64,000 nt of DNA, from the IMG/VR virus record IMGVR_UViG_3300050019_000176, positions 11,522-75,521 of that record. One strand, 5' to 3'. Shown piece by piece: positions 1 to 22,979 of this stretch. Positions within the stretch are counted from its first letter, which is position 1. Each line of letters starts with the position of its first letter. The DNA comes from a virus. A program made the position numbers and the translations under genes. The notes beneath the pieces are model-generated. The model saw nothing but the letters and a program-made list of their open reading frames with translations, ran no database searches and was not told the origin of the DNA.

Positions 1-38
1 TCGTAGGAGCAGCACCGTCACCAGACGATAAACCCGGC
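1..38 (-). tRNA. Partial tRNA (5' half), probable anticodon UAC (Val), truncated by window edge
   Basis: Minus strand GCCGGGT-TT-ATCGTC TGGT GACGGT-G-CTGCT CCTACGA: acceptor 5' strand, 6-bp D stem with 4-nt loop, start of anticodon arm. Confidence 0.55.
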
Positions 39-39
39 A

Positions 40-129
40 TGGTCCCCGGCCCAGGTGCCGACCCTGGATCTAGCTCCGATCTGGAGAAACGGTTATAGGC
101 CGTCTTGCGGCGCCGGCCGCCCACCGGGG
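40..129 (-). tRNA. Atypical tRNA with anticodon UAU (nominally Ile, reads AUA), long variable arm
   Basis: Acceptor CCCCGGT/GCCGGGG + ACCA; D arm GCGGC CGGC GCCGC; loop CC-TAT-AA; V arm CTCC..GGAG; T arm CCAGG GTCGGCA CCTGG. Confidence 0.75.
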
Positions 130-665
130 GAAGGTTGATCCTTCAATACAATCAAGCCATCATGGATCTCTCCGTGACAGTTAGCGCATGTGAGCACGCA
201 CTTGTCTAGTTCTTTTTTTATCCGAACCCAAGATGCCGTGACTCGGCTGATCGAAAAATCCTTTTGCGATTGGTCACTGTGGTGGAACCCTAATGAGCGC
301 AAGCACTTAGCATACCCGCAGAATTCGCACGCCCCTCCCTTGTATTCTACCGCCTTGAGCTTTAATCGCTTCCTCCACGCAGTTACCCCACGAACCGATC
401 TAGCTTTTGGATCGGAGGATTGTCTGCTCGCCACCCGCGCGTTATGGCGGCATTGATTGCTGCAATATCGGGAGCGCCTTGTAGAGGGGGAACCGCAGAC
501 TGCGCACTTCCCTTCCGGTTTCCGTTTTGGAAACTTCTTGTTATTGTACTTGGCGGCGCATGACTTATTGCAGAACTTCTTAATCCGAACATCCCGCGCA
601 GACTGCCCATCCATCGCCACAATCTTTCGTCGACATGATCGGCAGTAGTGTTGATTCGAAGCCAT
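93..665 (-). CDS. HNH endonuclease with N-terminal Zn-binding repeats
   Basis: CxxC / FCNKSC / YCSNQC motifs, then KGGACEFCG..LGFHH..ELDKCVLTCANCHGEIH; start MASNQH follows TGT-TAATAT-7nt; stop lies in the anticodon loop of the downstream tRNA. Confidence 0.88.
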   Translation of the reverse strand: MASNQHYCRSCRRKIVAMDGQSARDVRIKKFCNKSCAAKYNNKKFPKRKPEGKCAVCGSPSTRRSRYCSNQCRHNARVASRQSSDPKARSVRGVTAWRKRLKLKAVEYKGGACEFCGYAKCLRSLGFHHSDQSQKDFSISRVTASWVRIKKELDKCVLTCANCHGEIHDGLIVLKDQPSPGGRPAPQDGL

Positions 666-688
666 CAATAATATATTAACACGAAAAC

Positions 689-777
689 TGGCTGGCGGAA
701 GAGGATTCGAACCTCCATGCGGGATCACTCCACGGCAGATTAACAGTCTGCTGCCTTACCAGTTAGGCGATCCGCCA
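689..777 (-). tRNA. tRNA-Asn(GUU) with 18-nt variable arm
   Basis: Acceptor TGGCGGA/TCCGCCA, loop CT-GTT-AA, TTCGAAT T loop, CCA encoded. Confidence 0.92.
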
Positions 778-781
778 ATCT

Positions 782-857
782 TGGTGGGTCCAGCGGGGCT
801 CGAACCCGCACATCCCTGAGTAAGAATCAGGTACGCTGCCACTCGCGTCCTGGACCC
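782..857 (-). tRNA. tRNA-Lys(CUU)
   Basis: Cloverleaf, loop TT-CTT-AC, CCA. Confidence 0.9.
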
Positions 858-863
858 GAAACT

Positions 864-938
864 TGGTAGGGGTGACGCGAATTGAACACGCATCGAGAGA
901 TTGAAAGCCTCTCATCCTAACCATTAGACGACACCCCC
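864..938 (-). tRNA. tRNA-Glu(UUC)
   Basis: Loop CT-TTC-AA, CCA. Confidence 0.9.
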
Positions 939-939
939 A

Positions 940-1015
940 TGGCGTCCCCAGCCGGATTCGAACCGGCGATTTCTGGCGTGAGAAGCCAGCGTCCTTGCCG
1001 CTAGACGATGGGGAC
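940..1015 (-). tRNA. tRNA-Glu(CUC)
   Basis: Loop TT-CTC-AC, GGTTCGAATCC, CCA. Confidence 0.92.
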
Positions 1016-1020
1016 AAACT

Positions 1021-1095
1021 TGGCGCGGTGGACGGGTAACGATCCCGCTTCGTCTCCGTAGACAGCGGAGTGCATATCCTACCTGCCCCCACCGC
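1021..1095 (-). tRNA. tRNA-Asp(GUC)
   Basis: Loop CT-GTC-TA, G73, CCA. Confidence 0.88.
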
Positions 1096-1102
1096 GCAAA
1101 CT

Positions 1103-1138
1103 TGGTCGGCCCGCCGGGATTCGAACCCGGAGGGATAC
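1103..1138 (-). pseudogene. 3' half of interrupted tRNA-Arg(CCG)
   Basis: GTATCCCT-CCGGG TTCGAAT CCCGG-CGGGCCG-A-CCA; the acceptor strand pairs with the orphan 5' half at 1667-1714. Confidence 0.85.
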
Positions 1139-1139
1139 T

Positions 1140-1215
1140 TGGTGATCGTGGCTGGATTCTAACCAGCGACCTCTACCTTCGGAGGGCAGTGCTCTTTACG
1201 CTGAGCTACACGATC
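1140..1215 (-). tRNA. tRNA-Arg(CCG), intact copy inside the insertion
   Basis: Acceptor GATCGTG/CACGATC, loop CT-CCG-AA, T loop TTAGAAT, CCA. Confidence 0.88.
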
Positions 1216-1656
1216 AAGACCTAATACTGTAATCCATTTCCATCCACGCTCAAGAGCAGTCTTGATAGTGTGACACTTCGAACACCGAACATCACACTTG
1301 CTGATCTCTTCTTGCCGTCTGCGTTGACTCCACCCTTGCATATTCGAAACACTGGCGACCTTTTTCCCACGCACGTGATCGAATTGAAGAACGAGCGGGT
1401 TTGATTCACCACAATCTACACACGGGTGTTCACGAAAGAACGGCACCATTTCTGCGAAGAATGCTTCCATCCACTTGTCTCTCGAACGATCCGCCTTCAA
1501 GCGGTAGTATTCTTTGTTTCTCTGGTAATGATCCTTGTTATATGCCCTGTGGCATATTTTGCAGTCATCGGATCTTATGCCGCGGGATTTGTACTTGAAT
1601 GAAAACTCATCGACGTTCTGTTCTTTTCCGCAGCGACAACATGTTTTCTTAGTCAT
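1159..1656 (-). CDS. HNH endonuclease
   Basis: MTKKTCCRCG..DCKIC N-terminus; HPCVDCGESNPLVLQFDHVRG..EEISKCDVRCSKCH; start follows TGG-TATACT-7nt. Confidence 0.9.
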   Translation of the reverse strand: MTKKTCCRCGKEQNVDEFSFKYKSRGIRSDDCKICHRAYNKDHYQRNKEYYRLKADRSRDKWMEAFFAEMVPFFREHPCVDCGESNPLVLQFDHVRGKKVASVSNMQGWSQRRRQEEISKCDVRCSKCHTIKTALERGWKWITVLGLDRVAQRKEHCPPKVEVAG

Positions 1657-1666
1657 CCTCCGAAGT

Positions 1667-1714
1667 ATACCATCCTTCGGAGAGATGTGCCCTGTCCAGT
1701 TGAGCGACAGGCCG
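1667..1714 (-). pseudogene. 5' half of interrupted tRNA-Arg(CCG)
   Basis: CGGCCTG-TC-GCTC AACTGGACA GGGC-A-CATCT CTCCGAA GGATG-GTAT; no T arm follows. Confidence 0.85.
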
Positions 1715-1718
1715 AAAA

Positions 1719-1795
1719 TGGTACGCCCGCGAGGATTCGAACCCCGGTCTGATCGTTCGTAGCGATCTATCCTTTCCGGATTGGACGACGGGCGC
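1719..1795 (-). tRNA. tRNA-Arg(ACG)
   Basis: Loop CT-ACG-AA, CCA. Confidence 0.92.
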
Positions 1796-1803
1796 GCGAA
1801 AAA

Positions 1804-1886
1804 TGGTAAGCACCCACCCAGTGATTCCGACACTGGCTCTGTACCGACTCCCGCCGGTCGAGACTCCATGCCTCCCGTGGGTGCAT
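1804..1886 (-). ncRNA. tRNA-like RNA without a normal anticodon loop
   Basis: 8-bp acceptor-like stem GCACCCAC/GTGGGTGC, D-like arm, ACCGGC GGGA GTCGGT hairpin, 6-bp T-like arm, ends ACCA. Confidence 0.6.
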
Positions 1887-1895
1887 AAGCATAAA

Positions 1896-1971
1896 TGGCT
1901 GGCCGCCCAGGGTACGATCCTGGAACCTCTGCGTTCAGAGCGCAGCGCGCTGCCAATTGCGCCAGCGGCCA
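1896..1971 (-). tRNA. tRNA-Gln(CUG)
   Basis: Loop CT-CTG-AA, U1-A72, CCA. Confidence 0.92.
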
Positions 1972-1972
1972 A

Positions 1973-2046
1973 TGGCCGGGAGGGAGCGAATCGAACGCTC
2001 GAAGCTGGCTTCAAAGACCAGCGGCTTACCATTAACCTACCTCCCG
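1973..2046 (-). tRNA. tRNA-Gln(UUG)
   Basis: Loop CT-TTG-AA, CCA. Confidence 0.9.
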
Positions 2047-2049
2047 AAT

Positions 2050-2123
2050 TGGGGTGACCGATCGGTTCGACCCGACAACCTCCGGGGCCACAACCCGGCG
2101 CTCTACGTTTGAGCTACGGCCAC
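2050..2123 (-). tRNA. tRNA-His(GUG)
   Basis: Loop TT-GTG-GC, C73, CCA; atypical 6-nt T loop, no encoded G-1. Confidence 0.85.
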
Positions 2124-2126
2124 ACT

Positions 2127-2201
2127 TGGTGCCGGAAGCGGCGCTCGAATCCGCGTCACTGGCTTTTCAGACCAATGCTCTACCGTCTGAGCTATTCCGG
2201 C
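2127..2201 (-). tRNA. tRNA-Phe(GAA)
   Basis: Loop CT-GAA-AA, CCA. Confidence 0.9.
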
Positions 2202-2206
2202 GAAAT

Positions 2207-2286
2207 TGGTGGACCTCCAGAGAATTGAACTCTGCTGACTATCTTCCTTGCAAGGGAAGCGACCACCCCATGCAGTCTCGAGGCCC
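2207..2286 (-). tRNA. tRNA-Ala(UGC)
   Basis: Loop CT-TGC-AA, G3:U70 identity pair, 8-nt variable region, CCA. Confidence 0.92.
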
Positions 2287-2291
2287 AAAAT

Positions 2292-2364
2292 TGGTAGCGG
2301 GGGTCGGTGTTGATCCGACGCGGCTGGGTTTATGAGGCCAAGCTGTGAACCGTCTCTCCCCGCA
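2292..2364 (-). tRNA. tRNA-Met(CAU), initiator-like, weak anticodon stem
   Basis: Loop CT-CAT-AA, 1:72 mismatch (U:U), GCGGGG acceptor, CCA. Confidence 0.7.
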
Positions 2365-2372
2365 ATAAATTC

Positions 2373-2452
2373 TGGCATACAACCTCACGGCCCGGTATGC
2401 CGGCGGGTCGCGGCATGGACTGGAGTAGGGCTCACAGCGCCGCAGACGTCGA
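2373..2452 (-). ncRNA. Unassigned structured RNA within tRNA operon
   Basis: Two hairpins (GCGGCG..TGCCGC; GGCATAC..GGCC GTGA GGTT..GTATGCC) filling a tRNA-sized slot and ending in CCA. Confidence 0.4.
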
Positions 2453-2455
2453 ACT

Positions 2456-2529
2456 TGGTGCGTCCCCGAAGAGTTGAACTTCGATTGCTCCCCTATCGAG
2501 GGAGAGTCCTGCTATTGGACGAGGGGCGC
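2456..2529 (-). tRNA. tRNA-Ile(GAU)
   Basis: Loop TC-GAT-AG, CCA. Confidence 0.85.
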
Positions 2530-2530
2530 A

Positions 2531-2606
2531 TGGGGCCGGTGGCGGAACTCGAATCCGCGGATTCTTCCTTACCAAAGAAGCGGTGAACCATCCCACCTCC
2601 ACCGGC
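2531..2606 (-). tRNA. tRNA-Thr(GGU)
   Basis: Loop TT-GGT-AA, GCC acceptor start, CCA. Confidence 0.88.
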
Positions 2607-2611
2607 GAAAC

Positions 2612-2686
2612 TGGGGCCAGATCGGAGAATCGAACTCCGGTCACAGGGATACGAATCCTGCACTCTGCCGACTGAGCTAATCTGGC
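2612..2686 (-). tRNA. tRNA-Thr(CGU)
   Basis: Loop TT-CGT-AT, CCA. Confidence 0.9.
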
Positions 2687-2687
2687 A

Positions 2688-2762
2688 TGGAGCCGGGCGC
2701 CGAACTCGAAGCGGCCTCACTGACTTACAGGGCCAGCGCATCGCCATCTATGCTTGCCCGGC
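2688..2762 (-). tRNA. tRNA-Thr(UGU)
   Basis: Loop CC-TGT-AA, CCA. Confidence 0.88.
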
Positions 2763-2835
2763 TGGAGCGGATGGAGGCATCGAAGCCTCGTATCGACCTT
2801 GGCAAGGTCGCGCTCTACCATTGAGCTACACCCGC
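2763..2835 (-). tRNA. tRNA-Gly(GCC)
   Basis: Loop TT-GCC-AA, GCG start, U73, CCA. Confidence 0.92.
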
Positions 2836-2842
2836 AGAAACT

Positions 2843-2916
2843 TGGAGCGGACGGGGGTACTCGAAACCCCTTCTCTGGGTTGGAGGCCCAGGGCACACCC
2901 TATATACCACGCCCGC
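2843..2916 (-). tRNA. tRNA-Gly(UCC)
   Basis: Loop CC-TCC-AA, GCG start, U73, CCA. Confidence 0.9.
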
Positions 2917-2933
2917 CTTACTGCCTACACTCT

Positions 2934-2974
2934 GTTGTCAAAGACCCTGCCGCGCCTTCATGCCACTGCGCGGC
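2934..2974 (-). promoter_or_regulatory. boxB-like hairpin followed by boxA-like antitermination element
   Basis: GCCGCGC..GCGCGGC hairpin then GGTCTTTGACAAC, resembling rrn boxA (GCTCTTTAACAA). Confidence 0.65.
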
Positions 2975-2979
2975 GAACT

Positions 2980-3056
2980 TGGTCGGGGCGGCAAGATTCG
3001 AACTTGCGACCTTCTGGTCCCAGGCCAGACGGGTTAAACCACTTCCCTACGCCCCG
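2980..3056 (-). tRNA. tRNA-Pro(UGG)
   Basis: CGGGGCG acceptor, loop CC-TGG-GA, CCA; first gene of operon A. Confidence 0.92.
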
Positions 3057-3062
3057 AAAATC

Positions 3063-3091
3063 AAAAAGGCCCGAATCTTTCGATCCGAGCC
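3063..3091 (-). terminator. Intrinsic terminator (attenuator) between leader A and tRNA operon A
   Basis: GGCTCGGATC GAAA GATTCGGGCC followed by TTTTTGATTTT. Confidence 0.85.
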
Positions 3092-3120
3092 CACTGGAAA
3101 ACCGGAAATCCCAAGTGGGC

Positions 3121-3213
3121 TTACGGAGCATCGCGGGCGACTGGATTCATCGCCGGTGCGATGGGTTCCGTCCCCTGCTGCTTCCTTGTGCCGAAATGGA
3201 ATATGTATCTCAT
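3121..3213 (-). CDS. Leader peptide A, 30 aa: MRYIFHFGTRKQQGTEPIAPAMNPVARDAP
   Basis: ATG 10 nt downstream of TATACT; stop overlaps the antiterminator 5' strand; not reported as a separate ORF in the track. Confidence 0.75.
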   Translation of the reverse strand: MRYIFHFGTRKQQGTEPIAPAMNPVARDAP

Positions 3214-3250
3214 GTACGATTTCAGTATATCACGGTTTCGCCGAATGCAA
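3214..3250 (-). promoter_or_regulatory. sigma70-type promoter of tRNA operon A
   Basis: TTGCAT-15nt-TATACT with extended TG; TATACTGAAATCGTA is identical to the operon B promoter. Confidence 0.8.
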
Positions 3251-3258
3251 GCACTTTT

Positions 3259-3343
3259 TGGCGGAAGATGGCCGAATCGAACGACTCCGCTTGCGCGGAC
3301 CCCGGAATTCGAACCCGGTTGCCCACCATGGGCGGCATCTTCC
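3259..3343 (-). tRNA. tRNA-Ser(CGA), 8/4 fold
   Basis: GGAAGATG/CATCTTCC 8-bp acceptor, 4-bp T stem, long V arm, loop TT-CGA-AT. Confidence 0.88.
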
Positions 3344-3347
3344 GAAC

Positions 3348-3432
3348 TGGCGGAGAGCACCAGAGTCGAACTGGCACCCTTTCGGGGCTCCGGTTTTCCA
3401 GGCCGGCCGGGATCCACATCCCCGTACTCTCC
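3348..3432 (-). tRNA. tRNA-Ser(GGA), 8/4 fold
   Basis: GGAGAGTA/TGCTCTCC, T stem CCAG/CTGG, long V arm, loop CT-GGA-AA. Confidence 0.88.
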
Positions 3433-3439
3433 AAACTTA

Positions 3440-3524
3440 TGGCCGCGGGCGAAGGAATCGAACCCTCATCCCGAAGGAGCGCCAGTACTCAAGACTGGTG
3501 GCGGACCATCCGCCCGCGCCCGCG
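3440..3524 (-). tRNA. tRNA-Ser(UGA), 8/4 fold
   Basis: CGCGGGCG/CGCCCGCG, T stem AGGG/CCTT, long V arm, loop CT-TGA-GT, G73. Confidence 0.82.
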
Positions 3525-3525
3525 G

Positions 3526-3599
3526 TGGAATGGGGATCGGGAATCGAACCCGACATAACAGCTTTGCAGGCTGCCCTCTAGCCGATTGAGTTTCCCCAC
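3526..3599 (-). tRNA. tRNA-Cys(GCA)
   Basis: Loop CT-GCA-AA, U73, CCA. Confidence 0.9.
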
Positions 3600-3600
3600 G

Positions 3601-3671
3601 CACCCCAGCGACGATTCGAACGCCGAAAATCCGCTTTGGAGACGGACCACCTCACCATCGGTAACCGGGGC
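3601..3671 (-). tRNA. tRNA-Trp(CCA), no encoded CCA end
   Basis: Loop CT-CCA-AA, G73, abuts tRNA-Cys. Confidence 0.85.
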
Positions 3672-3676
3672 AAACT

Positions 3677-3760
3677 TGGTAGGCTCGGTGGGATTCGAAC
3701 CCACAGGGGAAAACGCTCTTGAGGCGTTTGGTTGTGCCAATTCACCTTATCCACGAGCCT
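3677..3760 (-). tRNA. tRNA-Leu(CAA), short variable region, enlarged D loop
   Basis: Loop CT-CAA-GA, A73, CCA. Confidence 0.85.
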
Positions 3761-3766
3761 AAAACT

Positions 3767-3843
3767 TGGTGCGCCGCCCGAGATTCGAACTCGGAAAAGT
3801 CAGGGCCTAAACCTGATGGATTTGCCAATTTTCCTAGCGGCGC
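3767..3843 (-). tRNA. tRNA-Leu(UAG), short variable region
   Basis: Loop TT-TAG-GC, A73, CCA. Confidence 0.88.
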
Positions 3844-3849
3844 ATAACT

Positions 3850-3937
3850 TGGTGAGTGCGGATGGATTTGAACCACCGTGGCCCCGAAGGACAGAAGGGT
3901 TACAGCCTTCCCGTTTCAGCCGCTCACGCACGCACTC
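3850..3937 (-). tRNA. tRNA-Tyr(GUA)
   Basis: Loop CT-GTA-AC, long V arm, CCA. Confidence 0.92.
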
Positions 3938-3938
3938 A

Positions 3939-3950
3939 TTGTCAAAGATC
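3939..3950 (-). promoter_or_regulatory. boxA-like element
   Basis: GATCTTTGACAA directly after the first tRNA of operon B. Confidence 0.65.
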
Positions 3951-3952
3951 TT

Positions 3953-4041
3953 TGGCGGAGAGCCGGCGACTCGAACGCCGGAGTCCCGAAGGAAGCACGC
4001 GTTTAGCAGACGCGCCGGACGGCCCACTGTCCATGCTCTCC
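3953..4041 (-). tRNA. tRNA-Ser(GCU)
   Basis: GGAGAGC acceptor, loop CT-GCT-AA, long V arm, CCA; first gene of operon B. Confidence 0.92.
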
Positions 4042-4054
4042 GAAACCTGGGCTC

Positions 4055-4153
4055 CTATAAACTCGACAGGGATGATAGGTGCCCGGACGGACACCACAAA
4101 TACTCGGCGGAGCGCCGATAGGAAAGAAATCCGCGATTGGAATTCTTGTGCAT
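4055..4153 (-). CDS. Leader peptide B, 32 aa: MHKNSNRGFLSYRRSAEYLWCPSGHLSSLSSL
   Basis: ATG 9 nt downstream of TATACT and overlapping the upstream stop (TAATG); TAG 13 nt before tRNA-Ser. Confidence 0.75.
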   Translation of the reverse strand: MHKNSNRGFLSYRRSAEYLWCPSGHLSSLSSL

Positions 4154-4458
4154 TACGATTTCAGTATAGCACGGGTACGTTCGGTGTCAAGTGGTATACG
4201 TTTCGAGGCATGGATCGGCGCAAACATGCTTCGCATCCTGCGGCGCTCCTCGGCCCACTTCGGGTCCGCCAGTTCCCGGCGCCGGTCGCGTTCATTCGAT
4301 ATTTCTCCCAACCGATAGAGAGCCTGTCCCTCCCACGAACTTTCTCCGTGATCATCTTCATCCAGCATGCCGACGCCGGCGTCGAGCAATTCCTGTTCCA
4401 GGATATAGAGTTCTGCATCCGTAAAACTTGTGACTTTTGCTTGGTAGAAGTTAGGCAT
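4153..4458 (-). CDS. Hypothetical protein
   Basis: ORF MPNFYQAK.., acidic/helical; stop overlaps leader B ATG. Confidence 0.6.
   Translation of the reverse strand: MPNFYQAKVTSFTDAELYILEQELLDAGVGMLDEDDHGESSWEGQALYRLGEISNERDRRRELADPKWAEERRRMRSMFAPIHASKRIPLDTERTRAILKS
4154..4190 (-). promoter_or_regulatory. sigma70 consensus promoter of tRNA operon B
   Basis: TTGACA-16nt-TATACT with extended TG. Confidence 0.88.
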
Positions 4459-4661
4459 TACCGAGGCTCCGAGGGCCACCCATACCACCGATGGTGCAGG
4501 TCAGCCGGACAGATTTTCTTCTCCTCGCCATCGTGCGGCACGGCGGCATGGAGGATCTTCAAAAGTAGGCGGGGCCATCCGAGAAGAGGTCGGGTGGCCC
4601 CGATGGAGGAGAATAGACGTACCACTTGACTTCATGCTACCACATTTTCTCCAAAATAAAA

Positions 4662-4691
4662 CTGGACATTTGGACAATCCTGACGCACAAT
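4662..4691 (+). promoter_or_regulatory. Putative promoter overlapped by tandem TGGACA half-sites
   Basis: CTGGACATTTGGACA; TGGACA-17nt-CACAAT upstream of AAGGAG..TTG. Confidence 0.5.
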
Positions 4692-4709
4692 CAGGGTAAG
4701 GAGAAGAAC

Positions 4710-5129
4710 TTGACAGCAAATACCCTTCCGACATTCAAGTGCGGGACGTGGTTCGATCCCGAGATTTTCGGCCGGCTCGATGCCGCCATCCAGAAAGAAG
4801 AGGCCGACAAGATTCGCGGCGCTCCGGAGTGCCTGTATTGCGGGCGTCCGTCAACCACCCCGCAAGGCATGTGTGGACATCACTTCGCCCGCAGTCTGCG
4901 TTATGGAGATCCACTCGCCGATGGGCCAATGGATCGGGGGTGCGAATTCCCGGGTTGCACGCGTCCGCATCTCGCCCGTGGCATGTGCGCCACGCACTAT
5001 TCTCGGTGGAAGCGTGGCCGGACTATTCAGACCACGTCTGCGGTGGTGGAGTCCCTACCGGTCCAGATGGACTTCGGGTGGATTGTACCGAACCATGCCG
5101 AGTTATACGCGGCGTCGAGTTGCGTGTAG
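4710..5129 (+). CDS. Zn-binding repeat protein (motif of the type found N-terminal to phage HNH proteins)
   Basis: Two C-x2/4-C-x8/9-GMC-x2-H(F/Y) motifs; RBS AAGGAG before TTG. Confidence 0.65.
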   Translation: MTANTLPTFKCGTWFDPEIFGRLDAAIQKEEADKIRGAPECLYCGRPSTTPQGMCGHHFARSLRYGDPLADGPMDRGCEFPGCTRPHLARGMCATHYSRWKRGRTIQTTSAVVESLPVQMDFGWIVPNHAELYAASSCV

Positions 5130-5677
5130 TTCCGGTCGACGTAGCGTCCAGTGAAGCGGCAATCCCATTCCTCCATCCATTCGTCGACTGGCCAAGTGAT
5201 ATTCCACTCGAACCAGTTCAGTGCACGGCGCCACCACGGCTTTGGTGTTGGCGTTATCAACTGGTAGATCGCTTTCTCCGTAAATACGTAGAGAGATCCG
5301 TTGAGTGATACGGGTTGGCCGGGAGGCATCATGGCGTTACCAAAAACGTATAGCTCTCGATCGCCTGCGCGTCCGCCGTACTCACCACGATTCGCTGAAT
5401 GCCGGGCACGGGGATGGTCAACCGGTGGCTCGGCGATAGCGATGAAGATCTCTCCATCGGGGACCGGGAGCACTGCCGGGAGCGGATCGGGAGACTTGAC
5501 TATCGCCGTCTTCCCCCACGTGGATCCGTAGACGTGGATCAGAAACTTGTCGATTACGCCGGAAAACTTGTTCTCCAGGCAGTAACCACAGATTCCGCGC
5601 ATTTGGCTTGTGCCTTCCCGGAAGATGTAGACGGACTCTCGCATTTCGCAGATACAACACGGTTTCCCGGTTTTCAT
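5027..5677 (-). CDS. Hypothetical protein (N-terminal CxxC..CxxC)
   Basis: 216-aa ORF, ATGA-coupled to the upstream gene. Confidence 0.65.
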   Translation of the reverse strand: MKTGKPCCICEMRESVYIFREGTSQMRGICGYCLENKFSGVIDKFLIHVYGSTWGKTAIVKSPDPLPAVLPVPDGEIFIAIAEPPVDHPRARHSANRGEYGGRAGDRELYVFGNAMMPPGQPVSLNGSLYVFTEKAIYQLITPTPKPWWRRALNWFEWNITWPVDEWMEEWDCRFTGRYVDRNYTQLDAAYNSAWFGTIHPKSIWTGRDSTTADVV

Positions 5678-6030
5678 GAGAGTGGGGGGTAGGGTGCTAG
5701 CGGGAGTGTGGAATCAAAATTCCAGACCTTCATGATAGAATCTTTCGACTGAGTGGAATGGATGGTGAACCCGAAGGTATACCCGCACCGCGTGTTATAT
5801 GCCTGCACCCACAGTCTTGGGTCAGATGCGCGCATGGACCCATCGGGCAATCGATGGATGCTGACGATCTTCTTTGGGCCGCCGTCGATGGAACATGTGA
5901 GCGATCCCACCACTGGGGAGAACTTCCTAAACTGTCGCAATGCCCGCATCTCCGGCGTCCAGGGGATGCGCTTCGCCGCCTTCGCCATGAATGGGGCGAA
6001 CAGTGTTGCCAGAAACCATCGTCTCAACAT
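5674..6030 (-). CDS. Hypothetical protein with RR-hydrophobic N-terminus
   Basis: MLRRWFLATLFAPFMAKAA; TACAAT-6nt-ATG. Confidence 0.6.
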   Translation of the reverse strand: MLRRWFLATLFAPFMAKAAKRIPWTPEMRALRQFRKFSPVVGSLTCSIDGGPKKIVSIHRLPDGSMRASDPRLWVQAYNTRCGYTFGFTIHSTQSKDSIMKVWNFDSTLPLAPYPPLS

Positions 6031-8020: not shown

Positions 8021-8499
8021 GCGGAAACGAGATTATCCTTATTATTGCGGCGACATTCCTGTTTTGCGCCATCACATTCGGCCTTGGTGCGCTCCTGTGG
8101 CGATACTTGGCGGAGCGCGGCCGCCGAGAGCGCGAGCGCGACGAACTTCTGCGGAAACTGGTGCCGGCGCTCGAAGCCTTCGCCGCGGCGGTAGTGCCGT
8201 TCAGTATTCTCCCCAAGATGTTGGATGGGCTGACAAAGGTGTGCGCCGCGCAGGTAGCCGAGATCACCAAGTTCCGGGAGGCCACCCAGGTAATCGCCGG
8301 GATCTTGGGGCAGAAGCCGCCGAAGGATGAGTTCACGGCGCCGACTGAGGAAGACGCCTACCGGGCCGGCCGGAAGCAGGAGTATCTGATTCGCGGTCTA
8401 TCGCCGGAGGAGGCGGAGACGCAGATGGAAGTCGATGAACAGCAGAAGATCTACGGCGGCGGAGATCCCTCGGTTCTCAACAGTATGATGGAGACGTAA
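8017..8499 (+). CDS. Membrane-anchored hypothetical protein
   Basis: N-terminal TM helix IILIIAATFLFCAITFGLGALLW. Confidence 0.7.
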   Translation: MSGNEIILIIAATFLFCAITFGLGALLWRYLAERGRRERERDELLRKLVPALEAFAAAVVPFSILPKMLDGLTKVCAAQVAEITKFREATQVIAGILGQKPPKDEFTAPTEEDAYRAGRKQEYLIRGLSPEEAETQMEVDEQQKIYGGGDPSVLNSMMET

Positions 8500-20753: not shown

Positions 20754-22979
20754 TTGGGCTCGATCGTCACCCCGCGCGGCCCGCTGATCAAGGTCGCCCA
20801 GTACATCCCCGCCGGCCGAGATCTGGAAGTCTACTCCCGCCTCGAATACTTCGACCAACCAAACCTAAAAAACCAGTGGGACCGCCTATCTAAGAAGGAC
20901 CTGAATTGGATCGACGAAGAGGTTGGCCGTATCCAGGACGGGTTCAAGGGGTTCGTCTACGCTGCCCGCAACTACTTCTGGATCAAAACCAAGAAACAGG
21001 GAGAACAGTTATTCTCCCTGTGGCCGTCACAGGAACTGCTGCTCGAAGTATTGACCGAGATGCGGAACAAGGGCCTTCCGCAGAAGGTCATGATCATCAA
21101 GTCTCGGAAACTCGGGTATTCCACGCTCATCGAAGCGCTGCTTGCTTGGCGGACGATGTTTTTCACCAACCAGGAGGGCATGGTGGTCTCGTTCGACCCG
21201 GAGAGTGCCGCCTACCTGTTCGGCATCATGCAGTTGATCTATGACCGGATGCCGTGGTTCCTGAAACCCATGTGCTCGTCTCGCGAGTTCAAGGAAGGGC
21301 TGAAGTTCGAGAACCCCAACTACAAGGGCCGCGGCGATGACCCCGGGCTAAACTCTCTGATCACCGTCCAGGGAGCCAACAAGAAGACCGGTATCGGACA
21401 GGGAATGACACTTTCTGGCGTGCATTTTTCGGAATTCTGTGATGTAGATGACAAGCAATGCAAGCAGATTATCCAGGAAGATATGGGTAACGCTCTCGGG
21501 CAAGGGCCGGGAGTATTCGCTATCCTCGAATCGACGGCGAAGGGTGCTGGCAGGTATGCCCACTGGCTCTGGATGAAGATGTGCGAGTTGGGAGAGAGGG
21601 CGGACTGGCGACCGGAGTTCTTCCCGTCCTTCTTCGATGCTGAGAATTTCCTGGCACCTCCCGGAGGGTGGCAACCGGAGGACAATGAGGCCGGCATCCG
21701 CGCCCAGGCGGCGCAGGAGTGGGTGCGTTGCAATGCCGCAGACTGTCTGCGGTATCAGCGCCGCTACCTGTCCGGGGAAGACCGCAACCAGACGACGTGC
21801 CCATCGTGCGGCGTCGGTGTACTCCAGGACCTGCTAGTGACCAACGGGTTCCTATACTGGATGGAGCGGAAGCGCAAGAACGCCGAAGGGGATGCCGAGT
21901 CGTTATCACTACTTTGGCAAGAACAAGCTGTCACCGCAAGTGATGCGTTTGTGGTGAGTGGCAACCCGGTTTTCCCTGCCGAAGCGCAGAAGTGGGCGGC
22001 GTCGAAGTGCACTGACAACTACGTCGAGGTCTTCATCTCCGCTGACGGGCACTTCCACGGTGTGCACCCCAAGCACAATCATTGTATCGATGCTGACTGC
22101 GAGGAAGACCACAGTTTCGACCGGCGCCCCATCAAACTGTATGAGTTGCCGATCCCCGGTGCGCGGTACGTCTGCGGGGGAGATCCATCCCACGGGAACG
22201 GCGGCGAGGCCGACTACTTCGTGGGTTCAGTGATTCGAGTGCCATCGCAGGGTGCCGATATCCAGGTAGCCGTCGCCCGGGCGAACGACATCGACCCGAC
22301 GGATCAGGCGATGATACTGAACTACTTGGGGCGTCACTACAACGATGCGTTGATGGCGGTGGAAGCAAACAAGTTGGATGTCGTCGCCAGCGATCTTCGG
22401 ACGAAGTGGAACTACCCTAACCTGTACAAGGAGCGAAACCGGTCCACCGGCCAGCCGACTGGCAGGTTCTGCTGGATCACCGATGAAAAGAGTAAGCCGG
22501 CGATCTACCTGCACATGAAGCGGTGGCTTCGCCTGCACCTGTTCGAACCGCGGTCCCGCAACTTCGCCGAGGAGATGAAGTTCTTCCGGAAGGAGGATAC
22601 TGAATCAGACAAGGCCGGCGCGATCCGGAAGTTCAAAGACGACGAGGTGATGGCGTCGTGTGTGGCTCTGTACGTTGCCCACTCCGACGACTGGGATGAG
22701 AACCTGGGGATGATCCGGATTCAGCAGGCGATCACCAACGAGAACTGCACTTGGCACATGTCGTGTGATGCCTGCGGTTTCCATTGGCCTTCCAACGACA
22801 TTGCGGCGGAGAAAGCCTGTGGACAGTGTGGGTCGATGTGTTTCTCGGCGCGGCAGAACCCCGAGTACAAGAAGCCGGAGGAGGAGCCCGCTGAGGAGGA
22901 CTTCTTTGCGGAGTTGAACCGAATGCTCAAGACGACAGACGACACCGACCCCAACAACCCGGACTACGCTCTACTCTGA
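20754..22979 (+). CDS. terL: Terminase large subunit
   Basis: Q motif LWPSQ, Walker A IIKSRKLGYST, Walker B VHFSE, coupling ESTAKG, nuclease GGDPS/AVEAN/DDEVMA. Confidence 0.95.
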   Translation: MGSIVTPRGPLIKVAQYIPAGRDLEVYSRLEYFDQPNLKNQWDRLSKKDLNWIDEEVGRIQDGFKGFVYAARNYFWIKTKKQGEQLFSLWPSQELLLEVLTEMRNKGLPQKVMIIKSRKLGYSTLIEALLAWRTMFFTNQEGMVVSFDPESAAYLFGIMQLIYDRMPWFLKPMCSSREFKEGLKFENPNYKGRGDDPGLNSLITVQGANKKTGIGQGMTLSGVHFSEFCDVDDKQCKQIIQEDMGNALGQGPGVFAILESTAKGAGRYAHWLWMKMCELGERADWRPEFFPSFFDAENFLAPPGGWQPEDNEAGIRAQAAQEWVRCNAADCLRYQRRYLSGEDRNQTTCPSCGVGVLQDLLVTNGFLYWMERKRKNAEGDAESLSLLWQEQAVTASDAFVVSGNPVFPAEAQKWAASKCTDNYVEVFISADGHFHGVHPKHNHCIDADCEEDHSFDRRPIKLYELPIPGARYVCGGDPSHGNGGEADYFVGSVIRVPSQGADIQVAVARANDIDPTDQAMILNYLGRHYNDALMAVEANKLDVVASDLRTKWNYPNLYKERNRSTGQPTGRFCWITDEKSKPAIYLHMKRWLRLHLFEPRSRNFAEEMKFFRKEDTESDKAGAIRKFKDDEVMASCVALYVAHSDDWDENLGMIRIQQAITNENCTWHMSCDACGFHWPSNDIAAEKACGQCGSMCFSARQNPEYKKPEEEPAEEDFFAELNRMLKTTDDTDPNNPDYALL

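Follow-up and report, generated by a model that had tools for sequence, protein, structure and literature searches.

T-box riboswitches recognize uncharged tRNA by direct binding and control synthetase and amino-acid genes. For phages, the purpose of tRNA arrays is a 50-year-old question, and the current answers, codon compensation and escape from tRNA-cleaving defences (PMC10264068, PMC11464382), are silent on how the expression of an array is controlled. The trn operon of Anabaena sp. PCC 7120, a long tRNA array, is induced under translational stress (PMC8421152) and is controlled by the repressor TrcR, which acts on direct repeats over the -10 element and the transcription start (PMC10272220). 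In this work we analyze a window of 64,000 nt, bases 11522-75521 of the IMG/VR record IMGVR_UViG_3300050019_000176, in which two phage tRNA operons, A and B, are each headed by a short open reading frame (ORF). Judging from their sequence, both ORFs are probably translated, cis-acting leaders that couple transcription of the operon to the decoding speed of the operon's own codons. In the literature searched, no case of tRNA genes under leader-peptide control was found, in agreement with an earlier examination of the locus made from its letters alone (hereafter the sequence-only reading), which knew of none described for tRNA arrays. A Phe-rich leader before the E. coli tRNA-Phe genes was considered as a precedent and discarded, since pheV has a ~100 nt promoter and no leader ORF.

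The phage, here labelled G000, is uncultured and was detected in peat metagenomes. The full record is a linear viral sequence of 75.5 kb, ~77% complete, which encodes a portal protein and a large terminase (TerL) and presents an array of at least 30 tRNA genes on the minus strand, extending past the left edge of the window. These tRNAs are most similar to those of actinophages.

Codon content of the leaders in G000 and in two relatives

The tRNA genes were called with ARAGORN, at the default and then at a lowered threshold, and with Infernal. As the sequence-only reading had noted, the calls divide the array by amino acid: Ser, Leu, Tyr, Trp and Cys are assigned to operon B and the others to operon A (Table 1), which begins with tRNA-Pro at 3056 and includes only P, G, T, I, M, A, F, H, Q, R, D, E, K and N. 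Both leader peptides were recovered as that reading had written them, with the composition it had described. Leader A is built from 16 amino-acid types, including all 14 amino acids of operon A and lacking S, L, W and C; only 1 of its 29 scored residues is Ser, Leu, Tyr, Trp or Cys (S/L/Y/W/C), and 21/24 operon-A anticodons are sampled. In leader B, 17 of the 31 scored residues are S/L/Y/W/C, and the operon-B anticodons are sampled completely (9/9).

Two scores were used to evaluate this match: the count of S/L/Y/W/C residues, and how many tRNAs of the operon have one or more cognate codons in the leader under strict wobble rules. These scores were compared with a first-order Markov model built from the genome and with dinucleotide shuffles of each leader, which are a harsh null that retains the leader's own composition. 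Under the Markov model, the probabilities for leader A are 0.004 for at most one S/L/Y/W/C residue and 9e-4 for at least 21/24 anticodons (joint, 3.7e-5 to 7e-5); for leader B they are 1.7e-4 for at least 17 residues and 2.2e-3 for 9/9 anticodons (joint, 1.7e-5). The probability that all 14 set-A amino acids occur within 30 residues is 0.0046. The match also survived the shuffles of the leaders' own sequences, with joint p of 1.7e-3 for leader A and 8e-5 for leader B. The two other frames of each leader are unskewed, with 4-8 S/L/Y/W/C residues; since they are unremarkable, the signal belongs to the reading frame rather than to base composition.

The statistic was defined after the sequence-only reading had seen the G000 data and is prospective only for two array-bearing relatives, G009 and G011, for which it was fixed beforehand. 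An alignment of TerL led to 76 IMG/VR loci. Most of these ~100-kb relatives have 0-2 tRNAs and are hence uninformative; arrays are present in two lineages with TerL 38-40% identical, G009 (locus L043) and G011 (loci L055 and L080). A further genome, G037, is identical to G011 in the region and was excluded as an independent case. Both lineages likewise set Ser(gct)-Tyr(gta)-Leu apart in a block of its own, together with Cys and, in G009, Trp. Upstream of each block lies a sigma-70-type promoter, and 6 or 7 nt past its -10 element an ATG opens a 25-codon ORF. In the G009 leader, 16/24 residues are S/L/Y/W/C (p = 4e-5) and the downstream anticodons are sampled completely (6/6); for the G011 leader the figures are 15/24 (p = 1e-4) and 7/7, one of the codons being CGG, read by an Arg(ccg) tRNA within the block. 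The enrichment is frame-specific and holds against shuffles of own composition (p < 1e-4 for G009 and 2.5e-3 for G011). A systematic scan of promoter-proximal short ORFs in all four array regions returned essentially only these leaders. The expectation of the sequence-only reading that the ORF would recur in related arrays was thus borne out for the B type, in two distant lineages.

The DNA of the three B leaders is hardly alignable; they have retained a start at the transcript's 5' terminus, their length, an open frame and the classes of codon. This pattern would be expected of a leader peptide whose codons outweigh its sequence. In G011 the tRNA-Trp gene lies in another cluster and the leader has no Trp codon; in G000 and G009 Trp is found in both places. 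Such co-variation between leader and block across three lineages is only a hint. It is distinctly unlikely that the ORFs encode functional micropeptides unrelated to tRNA sensing, rich in Ser, Leu and Arg in the case of B, whose position reflects shared early promoters. The frame is conserved and under selection in the three lineages, an LLSR motif is common to the leaders of the relatives and the leaderless geometry is that of ordinary phage genes, which speaks for such peptides; but it is the composition that is kept, while the peptide sequence is poorly kept. This composition follows the downstream tRNAs (9/9, 6/6 and 7/7 anticodons, with the co-variation of Trp), and leader A is complementary in composition and ends inside the attenuator described below.

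Closer homologues of the locus were also searched. The comparison by blastn with GenBank phages gave single-tRNA matches only, and none was found by exact-pattern scans of IMG/VR, by protein-anchored scans (with the 111-aa product of a neighbour gene or with TerL alone) or by two metagenome scans. Three peat DNA runs contain the same phage and a variant 87-91% identical over the Ser tRNAs, with no readable variant of a leader. Streptomyces phage Gilson was considered for comparison and set aside, as its tRNAs are scattered among genes and are not comparable.

In operon B, the Leu(caa)-like tRNA (~3680-3762, minus strand) presents an unusual D arm and a short variable arm; it was missed by default ARAGORN and reached 27.8 bits in Infernal, just under the gathering threshold. 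The separately transcribed block corresponds to the tRNAs with a long variable arm (class II) together with Cys and Trp, and their codons are mostly U-initial. The order Ser(gct)-Tyr(gta)-Leu is kept in the three lineages (window 3850-4041; L043 9204-9463; L080 3462-3741). In operon A, Thr(tgt) and Met(cat) surfaced at the lowered ARAGORN threshold, and a 'Ser(cga)' call at 2456-2529 was rejected and read as Ile(gat), the anticodon given by ARAGORN being one base off, at position 32. Beyond the window edge, operon A continues with Lys(ttt), Arg(cct) and Arg(tct). This operon is interrupted by HNH cassettes. Contigs of two peat runs, X1 and X2, join window position 43 to 689 and 1131 to 1671, omitting two HNH-gene cassettes; because they skip both, the HNH insertions are polymorphic in the natural population. 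At the second joint (1131/1671), 'TCG' stands between the two sides. The terminase (window 20754-22979, plus strand) is a member of a large family from ~100-kb uncultured phages, many homologues having 1000-1200 aa with intein or homing-endonuclease domains (PF14890, PF14528).

Twin promoters and predicted start sites of the leaders

The promoters of the two operons share a 15-mer, TATACTGAAATCGTA, whose only two occurrences in the 75.5-kb genome are at 4168-4154 and 3229-3215 of the minus strand; the identity between promoters A and B reaches 21 bases, CCGTGnTATACTGAAATCGTA. The ATG of the leader follows 0 nt (B) or 1 nt (A) past the shared segment. The twin promoters with their immediate ATGs had been noted by the sequence-only reading and are present, with small corrections of coordinates.

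The distance from the -10 element to the ATG is 9 nt for leader B and 10 nt for leader A. Three other strong sigma-70-type promoters of G000, located left of the window (G000:C1 ~8264, plus strand; 6802 and 4483, minus strand), precede ORFs of 193, 127 and 60 aa. Because their ATGs stand 6-7 nt after the -10 element, the early genes of this phage look leaderless. Since ordinary genes of G000 and of its relatives use leaderless promoters, translation of the leaders from an ATG at or near the 5' end is plausible. Leaderless mRNA translation would also fit an actinobacterial host, which the similarity of the tRNAs to those of actinophages suggests.

Control at initiation, by a DNA-binding factor that recognizes the identical 9 bases after the -10 element in the manner of TrcR, with the ORFs being secondary, is very unlikely. 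The identity does span the discriminator and the start region, ACTGAAATCGTA, and a published tRNA array has operators over the -10 element and the transcription start (PMC8421152, PMC10272220). However, the shared bases are neither repeated nor clearly palindromic and are absent from the B promoters of the relatives, and such a factor would leave the ORF composition and the attenuator unexplained. It could nevertheless coexist with leaders that couple transcription to decoding.

Promoter B is embedded in the 3' end of a conserved 101/111-aa gene. This small, conserved upstream gene (window 4153-4488, minus strand) has a homologue, P0002, that is 56% identical, and a closer B leader is probably present on the 1651-bp ENA contig that encodes P0002. 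The promoter lies in the last codons of the gene, and the stop codon overlaps the ATG of leader B in the sequence TAATG, an overlap that would permit coupled re-initiation on longer transcripts.

Predicted read-outs of the two leaders

From the presumed transcript start to tRNA-Pro, operon A presents 161 nt of RNA, predicted to fold, when untranslated, into a terminator conformer of -61.5 kcal/mol (z = -3.9). In this conformer region 1, corresponding to codons 1-8 (3211-3190), pairs with region 2 (3120-3097), just past the stop codon, and regions 3 and 4 form an intrinsic terminator that ends 1 nt ahead of tRNA-Pro. Region 2 may also pair with region 3 (3095-3088) as an antiterminator, which starts within the stop codon and has GGGCU in common with the terminator. 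The forced antiterminator conformer has -58.2 kcal/mol, which is 3.3 kcal/mol above the minimum.

The influence of a ribosome was modelled by moving a 28-nt footprint codon by codon along leader A, at equilibrium only. The terminator has a probability of 0.99 with no ribosome and of ~1.0 with a ribosome on the last four codons or on the stop codon. A stall at codons 1-18 or 25-27 gives the antiterminator a probability mostly of 0.5-0.8, with 0.25 at codons 12-13. Leader A combines a promoter-proximal ORF, matched codons, a terminator and an overlapping antiterminator that is ribosome-dependent in this model; on sequence and thermodynamics, it is predicted to be a complete trp-type 1:2 / 2:3 / 3:4 attenuator logic.

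In the mechanism that we propose for operon A, region 1 would pair with region 2 when no ribosome is present, and the terminator would form; a ribosome at the stop codon would cover region 2, with the same result. A ribosome delayed earlier would leave region 2 free for the antiterminator, and the polymerase would enter at least 25 tRNA genes. As leader A has one or two codons for nearly every tRNA of operon A, slow decoding of any of them may raise the output, and the newly made tRNAs would close a feedback loop.

Two candidates for an A-type leader in L055 were rejected: a GAAA-loop terminator before tRNA-Glu merely ends a protein gene, and a promoter at 4372 belongs to an HNH gene. At window 3194-3254, which includes promoter A and the start of leader A, the closest known strain may be different.

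The attenuator also bears on the possibility that chance and ordinary parts produced the locus: a promoter that was duplicated, ORFs without meaning and a terminator whose only role is to end operon B. The promoters are nearly identical and their copying may have carried the ATG with it, the terminator would also block read-through from operon B, and the hypothesis was framed post hoc by the sequence-only reading. Against this stand the joint probability of ~1e-5 per leader, the independent confirmation in two lineages at ~1e-4 each, and the architecture of a regulated leader, in which the promoter lies 160 nt ahead of a strong terminator that an antiterminator overlaps. We consider this the least probable of the explanations.

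For the B-type leaders the predicted read-out is of another kind. The stop codon is located 7-18 nt ahead of the first tRNA or tRNA-like gene, and the matched codons are concentrated towards the 3' end, with 34/42 S/L/Y/W/C residues in the 3' halves of the three leaders vs 14/37 in the 5' halves. The leader RNA is weakly structured and has more C than G (28/23, 24/13 and 24/17). In addition, a boxA-like motif, TCTTTGACA, has only two copies in the 64-kb window, each after the first tRNA of an operon, and is found at the same position in G009 (L043 8504-8512) and G011 (L080 2550-2558). Its part TCTTTGACAA resembles the consensus of the boxA core, a likeness of the motif alone. The motif contains TTGACA and was considered as a -35 element, which was rejected, as none of the four copies is followed by a -10 hexamer at promoter spacing. 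A processing switch in which the 3' end of the leader pairs with the first tRNA, in its 5' half, was likewise dismissed, such pairing being seen in G000 only and not significant. In G009, a degenerate tRNA-like cloverleaf lies between the leader ORF and the boxA-like motif (L043 ~8419-8497); its anticodon loop is readable as Cys(GCA), and it is unlisted by default ARAGORN and Infernal.

A ribosome stalled near the end of the B-type ORF would shield this weakly structured, C-over-G RNA from Rho, or block Rho on it, in the manner of tnaC. The shielding would last until the polymerase passes the boxA-like site behind the first tRNA, where a boxA-dependent modification may occur. We offer this read-out of the B leaders as a guess from the arrangement of the parts, less likely than not.

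It is unlikely that the leaders are non-coding RNA elements with the ORFs as by-products, in which switch A is set by a protein, an uncharged tRNA or a small molecule and B is a pyrimidine-rich leader for processing or Rho loading. Any factor that frees region 2 would work switch A, the RNA of the B leaders is C-over-G and has little structure, and the ATGs of G000 are off the exact position expected for leaderless starts. On the other hand, the skew is confined to one frame, even in comparison with shuffles of own composition; the ATG stands exactly at the expected start site in both relatives; the stop codon of leader A abuts region 2; and no Rfam family, T-box included, matched at E up to 1 in window 1-6000.

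Several points weigh against translated leaders that couple transcription to decoding. The chance statistics of G000, taken alone, are suggestive rather than conclusive insofar as they are post hoc. The spacing of 9-10 nt in G000 differs from the 6-7 nt of its leaderless genes, so that the mRNA may carry 1-4 extra 5' bases, and no Shine-Dalgarno sequence was found before either leader ATG. The match itself is imperfect: leader A contains one Tyr, an amino acid of operon B, and a single Val codon, GUC, to which no phage tRNA clearly corresponds; leader B has 14 residues other than S/L/Y/W/C; and all the B leaders also carry Arg, His, Asn and similar residues. Ser codons of the UCN type occur in the leaders of the relatives, and a phage tRNA for these was not found. 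Most tRNAs are represented by a single leader codon, a weaker arrangement than the codon runs of classical attenuators.

The read-outs are open to objections of the same order. A stall at codons 19-24 of leader A still gives the terminator in the equilibrium model; kinetics would favour the local 2:3 hairpin there. The attenuator is present in one genome only, as the systematic scan found no A-type leader in the arrays of G009 and G011. The 87%-identical contig of run X2 covers the Ser tRNAs (3255-3505), and its alignment ends where promoter A begins. In the B leaders of G000, G009 and G011, alone or with the first tRNA, no intrinsic terminator and no significant or conserved alternative fold was found, which leaves the claim that leader B switches on its operon unsupported in this respect.

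The sequence-only reading had gone further, proposing that the leaders survey a whole panel of host tRNAs and switch on the matching replacements when any is lost. In this version of 'roster' leaders, the loss of any host tRNA, for example to an anticodon nuclease, would stall the ribosome and turn on the matching tRNAs, through a leaderless form and, for B, a Rho roadblock before boxA; we hold it as doubtful, if conceivable. The same findings fit equally well a plain supply-and-demand feedback on decoding speed. The trigger may be cleavage of host tRNAs by defence nucleases, loss of host tRNAs induced by the phage, or simple codon demand. Of the interpretation of the leaders as sensors, the non-random and frame-specific match, the attenuator of A and the B type in relatives stand; a switch for B and an A type in relatives are not supported.

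Table 1. Positions of the operons, promoters, leaders and RNA elements (window coordinates unless a locus is named)
Feature	Position	Strand	Description
tRNA operon B	3259..4041	-	Ser(gct), Tyr(gta), Leu(tag), Leu(caa)-like, Trp(cca), Cys(gca), Ser(tga), Ser(gga), Ser(cga)
tRNA operon A	1..3056	-	Pro, Gly x2, Thr x3, Ile, Met, Ala, Phe, His, Gln x2, Arg x2, Asp, Glu x2, Lys, Asn, Ile(tat)
Promoter B	4163..4190	-	TTGACA, 16-nt spacer, TG-n-TATACT; scored 11/12 with extended -10
Promoter A	3215..3250	-	extended -10 TG-a-TATACT at 3229-3224; weak -35
Leader B ORF	4055..4153	-	32 codons + TAG; peptide MHKNSNRGFLSYRRSAEYLWCPSGHLSSLSSL
Leader A ORF	3121..3213	-	30 codons + TAA; peptide MRYIFHFGTRKQQGTEPIAPAMNPVARDAP
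Antiterminator hairpin (2:3), predicted	3088..3121	-	AGCCCACU...AGUGGGCU; -15.8 kcal/mol; 1/200 shuffles as stable
Intrinsic terminator (3:4), predicted	3057..3092	-	11-bp stem, GAAA loop, U tract; -18.6 kcal/mol, z = -4.7
boxA-like motif, operon B	3940..3948	-	TCTTTGACA(A); spacer after first tRNA
boxA-like motif, operon A	2936..2944	-	TCTTTGACA(A); spacer after tRNA-Pro, first tRNA
G009 leader	L043 8332-8409		25-codon leaderless ORF MNRAHILSLLSRSCLWSSRLQLSSY
G011 leader	L080 2379-2456		25-codon leaderless ORF MATILRPRLLSRALRSSLCLCSYSL

Comparison with known systems

T-box riboswitches resemble the leaders described here as cis-acting control by terminator and antiterminator that answers to the status of tRNA. 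They differ in that the signal here lies in a probably translated frame, and no T-box model matches. The nearest published functional parallel is the Anabaena trn operon, a large accessory tRNA array that goes up when translation is impaired; its control, however, is by a protein repressor, with no leader ORF or attenuator described there (PMC8421152, PMC10272220).

The boxA/Nus antitermination of rrn operons is similar in the core of the motif and in its early placement in long untranslated operons, which is repeated in three lineages of these phages. In rrn operons, boxA lies in the leader, whereas the phage motif comes after the first tRNA, with no boxB or boxC identified. Rho-dependent leaders such as tnaC and those of the mgtL/mgtA type share with the B type a short ORF, no intrinsic terminator, matched codons at the 3' end, weakly structured C-over-G RNA and a downstream boxA-like element. 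In tnaC, the peptide is arrested by a ligand and boxA is beside the stop codon; in the B type the stall signal would be a missing tRNA, and the boxA-like motif is found after the first tRNA. A B form that lacks a terminator yet recurs in three lineages suggests that a second read-out exists.

Leader A is comparable to the attenuators of amino-acid operons (trpL, hisL, leuL and pheL, and the multivalent thrL and ilvL), with a promoter-proximal ORF with matched codons, the 1:2, 2:3 and 3:4 pairings, a stop codon beside region 2 and a terminator before the regulated genes. Those attenuators regulate biosynthetic enzymes and use runs of one or two amino acids, while leader A precedes tRNA genes and samples ~21 anticodon classes once or twice. 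It is also apparently leaderless, without a Shine-Dalgarno sequence and without homology or an Rfam leader match. If the proposal is true, the phage would gauge decoding capacity codon by codon and make tRNAs on demand, and ribosome-mediated attenuation would no longer be confined to amino-acid biosynthesis but would cover tRNA genes, would sense a panel of ~20 in place of one or two amino acids, and would reach leaderless transcripts. Two complementary leaders, a B leader kept across three deep lineages and a version without a terminator are the particular features of this locus.

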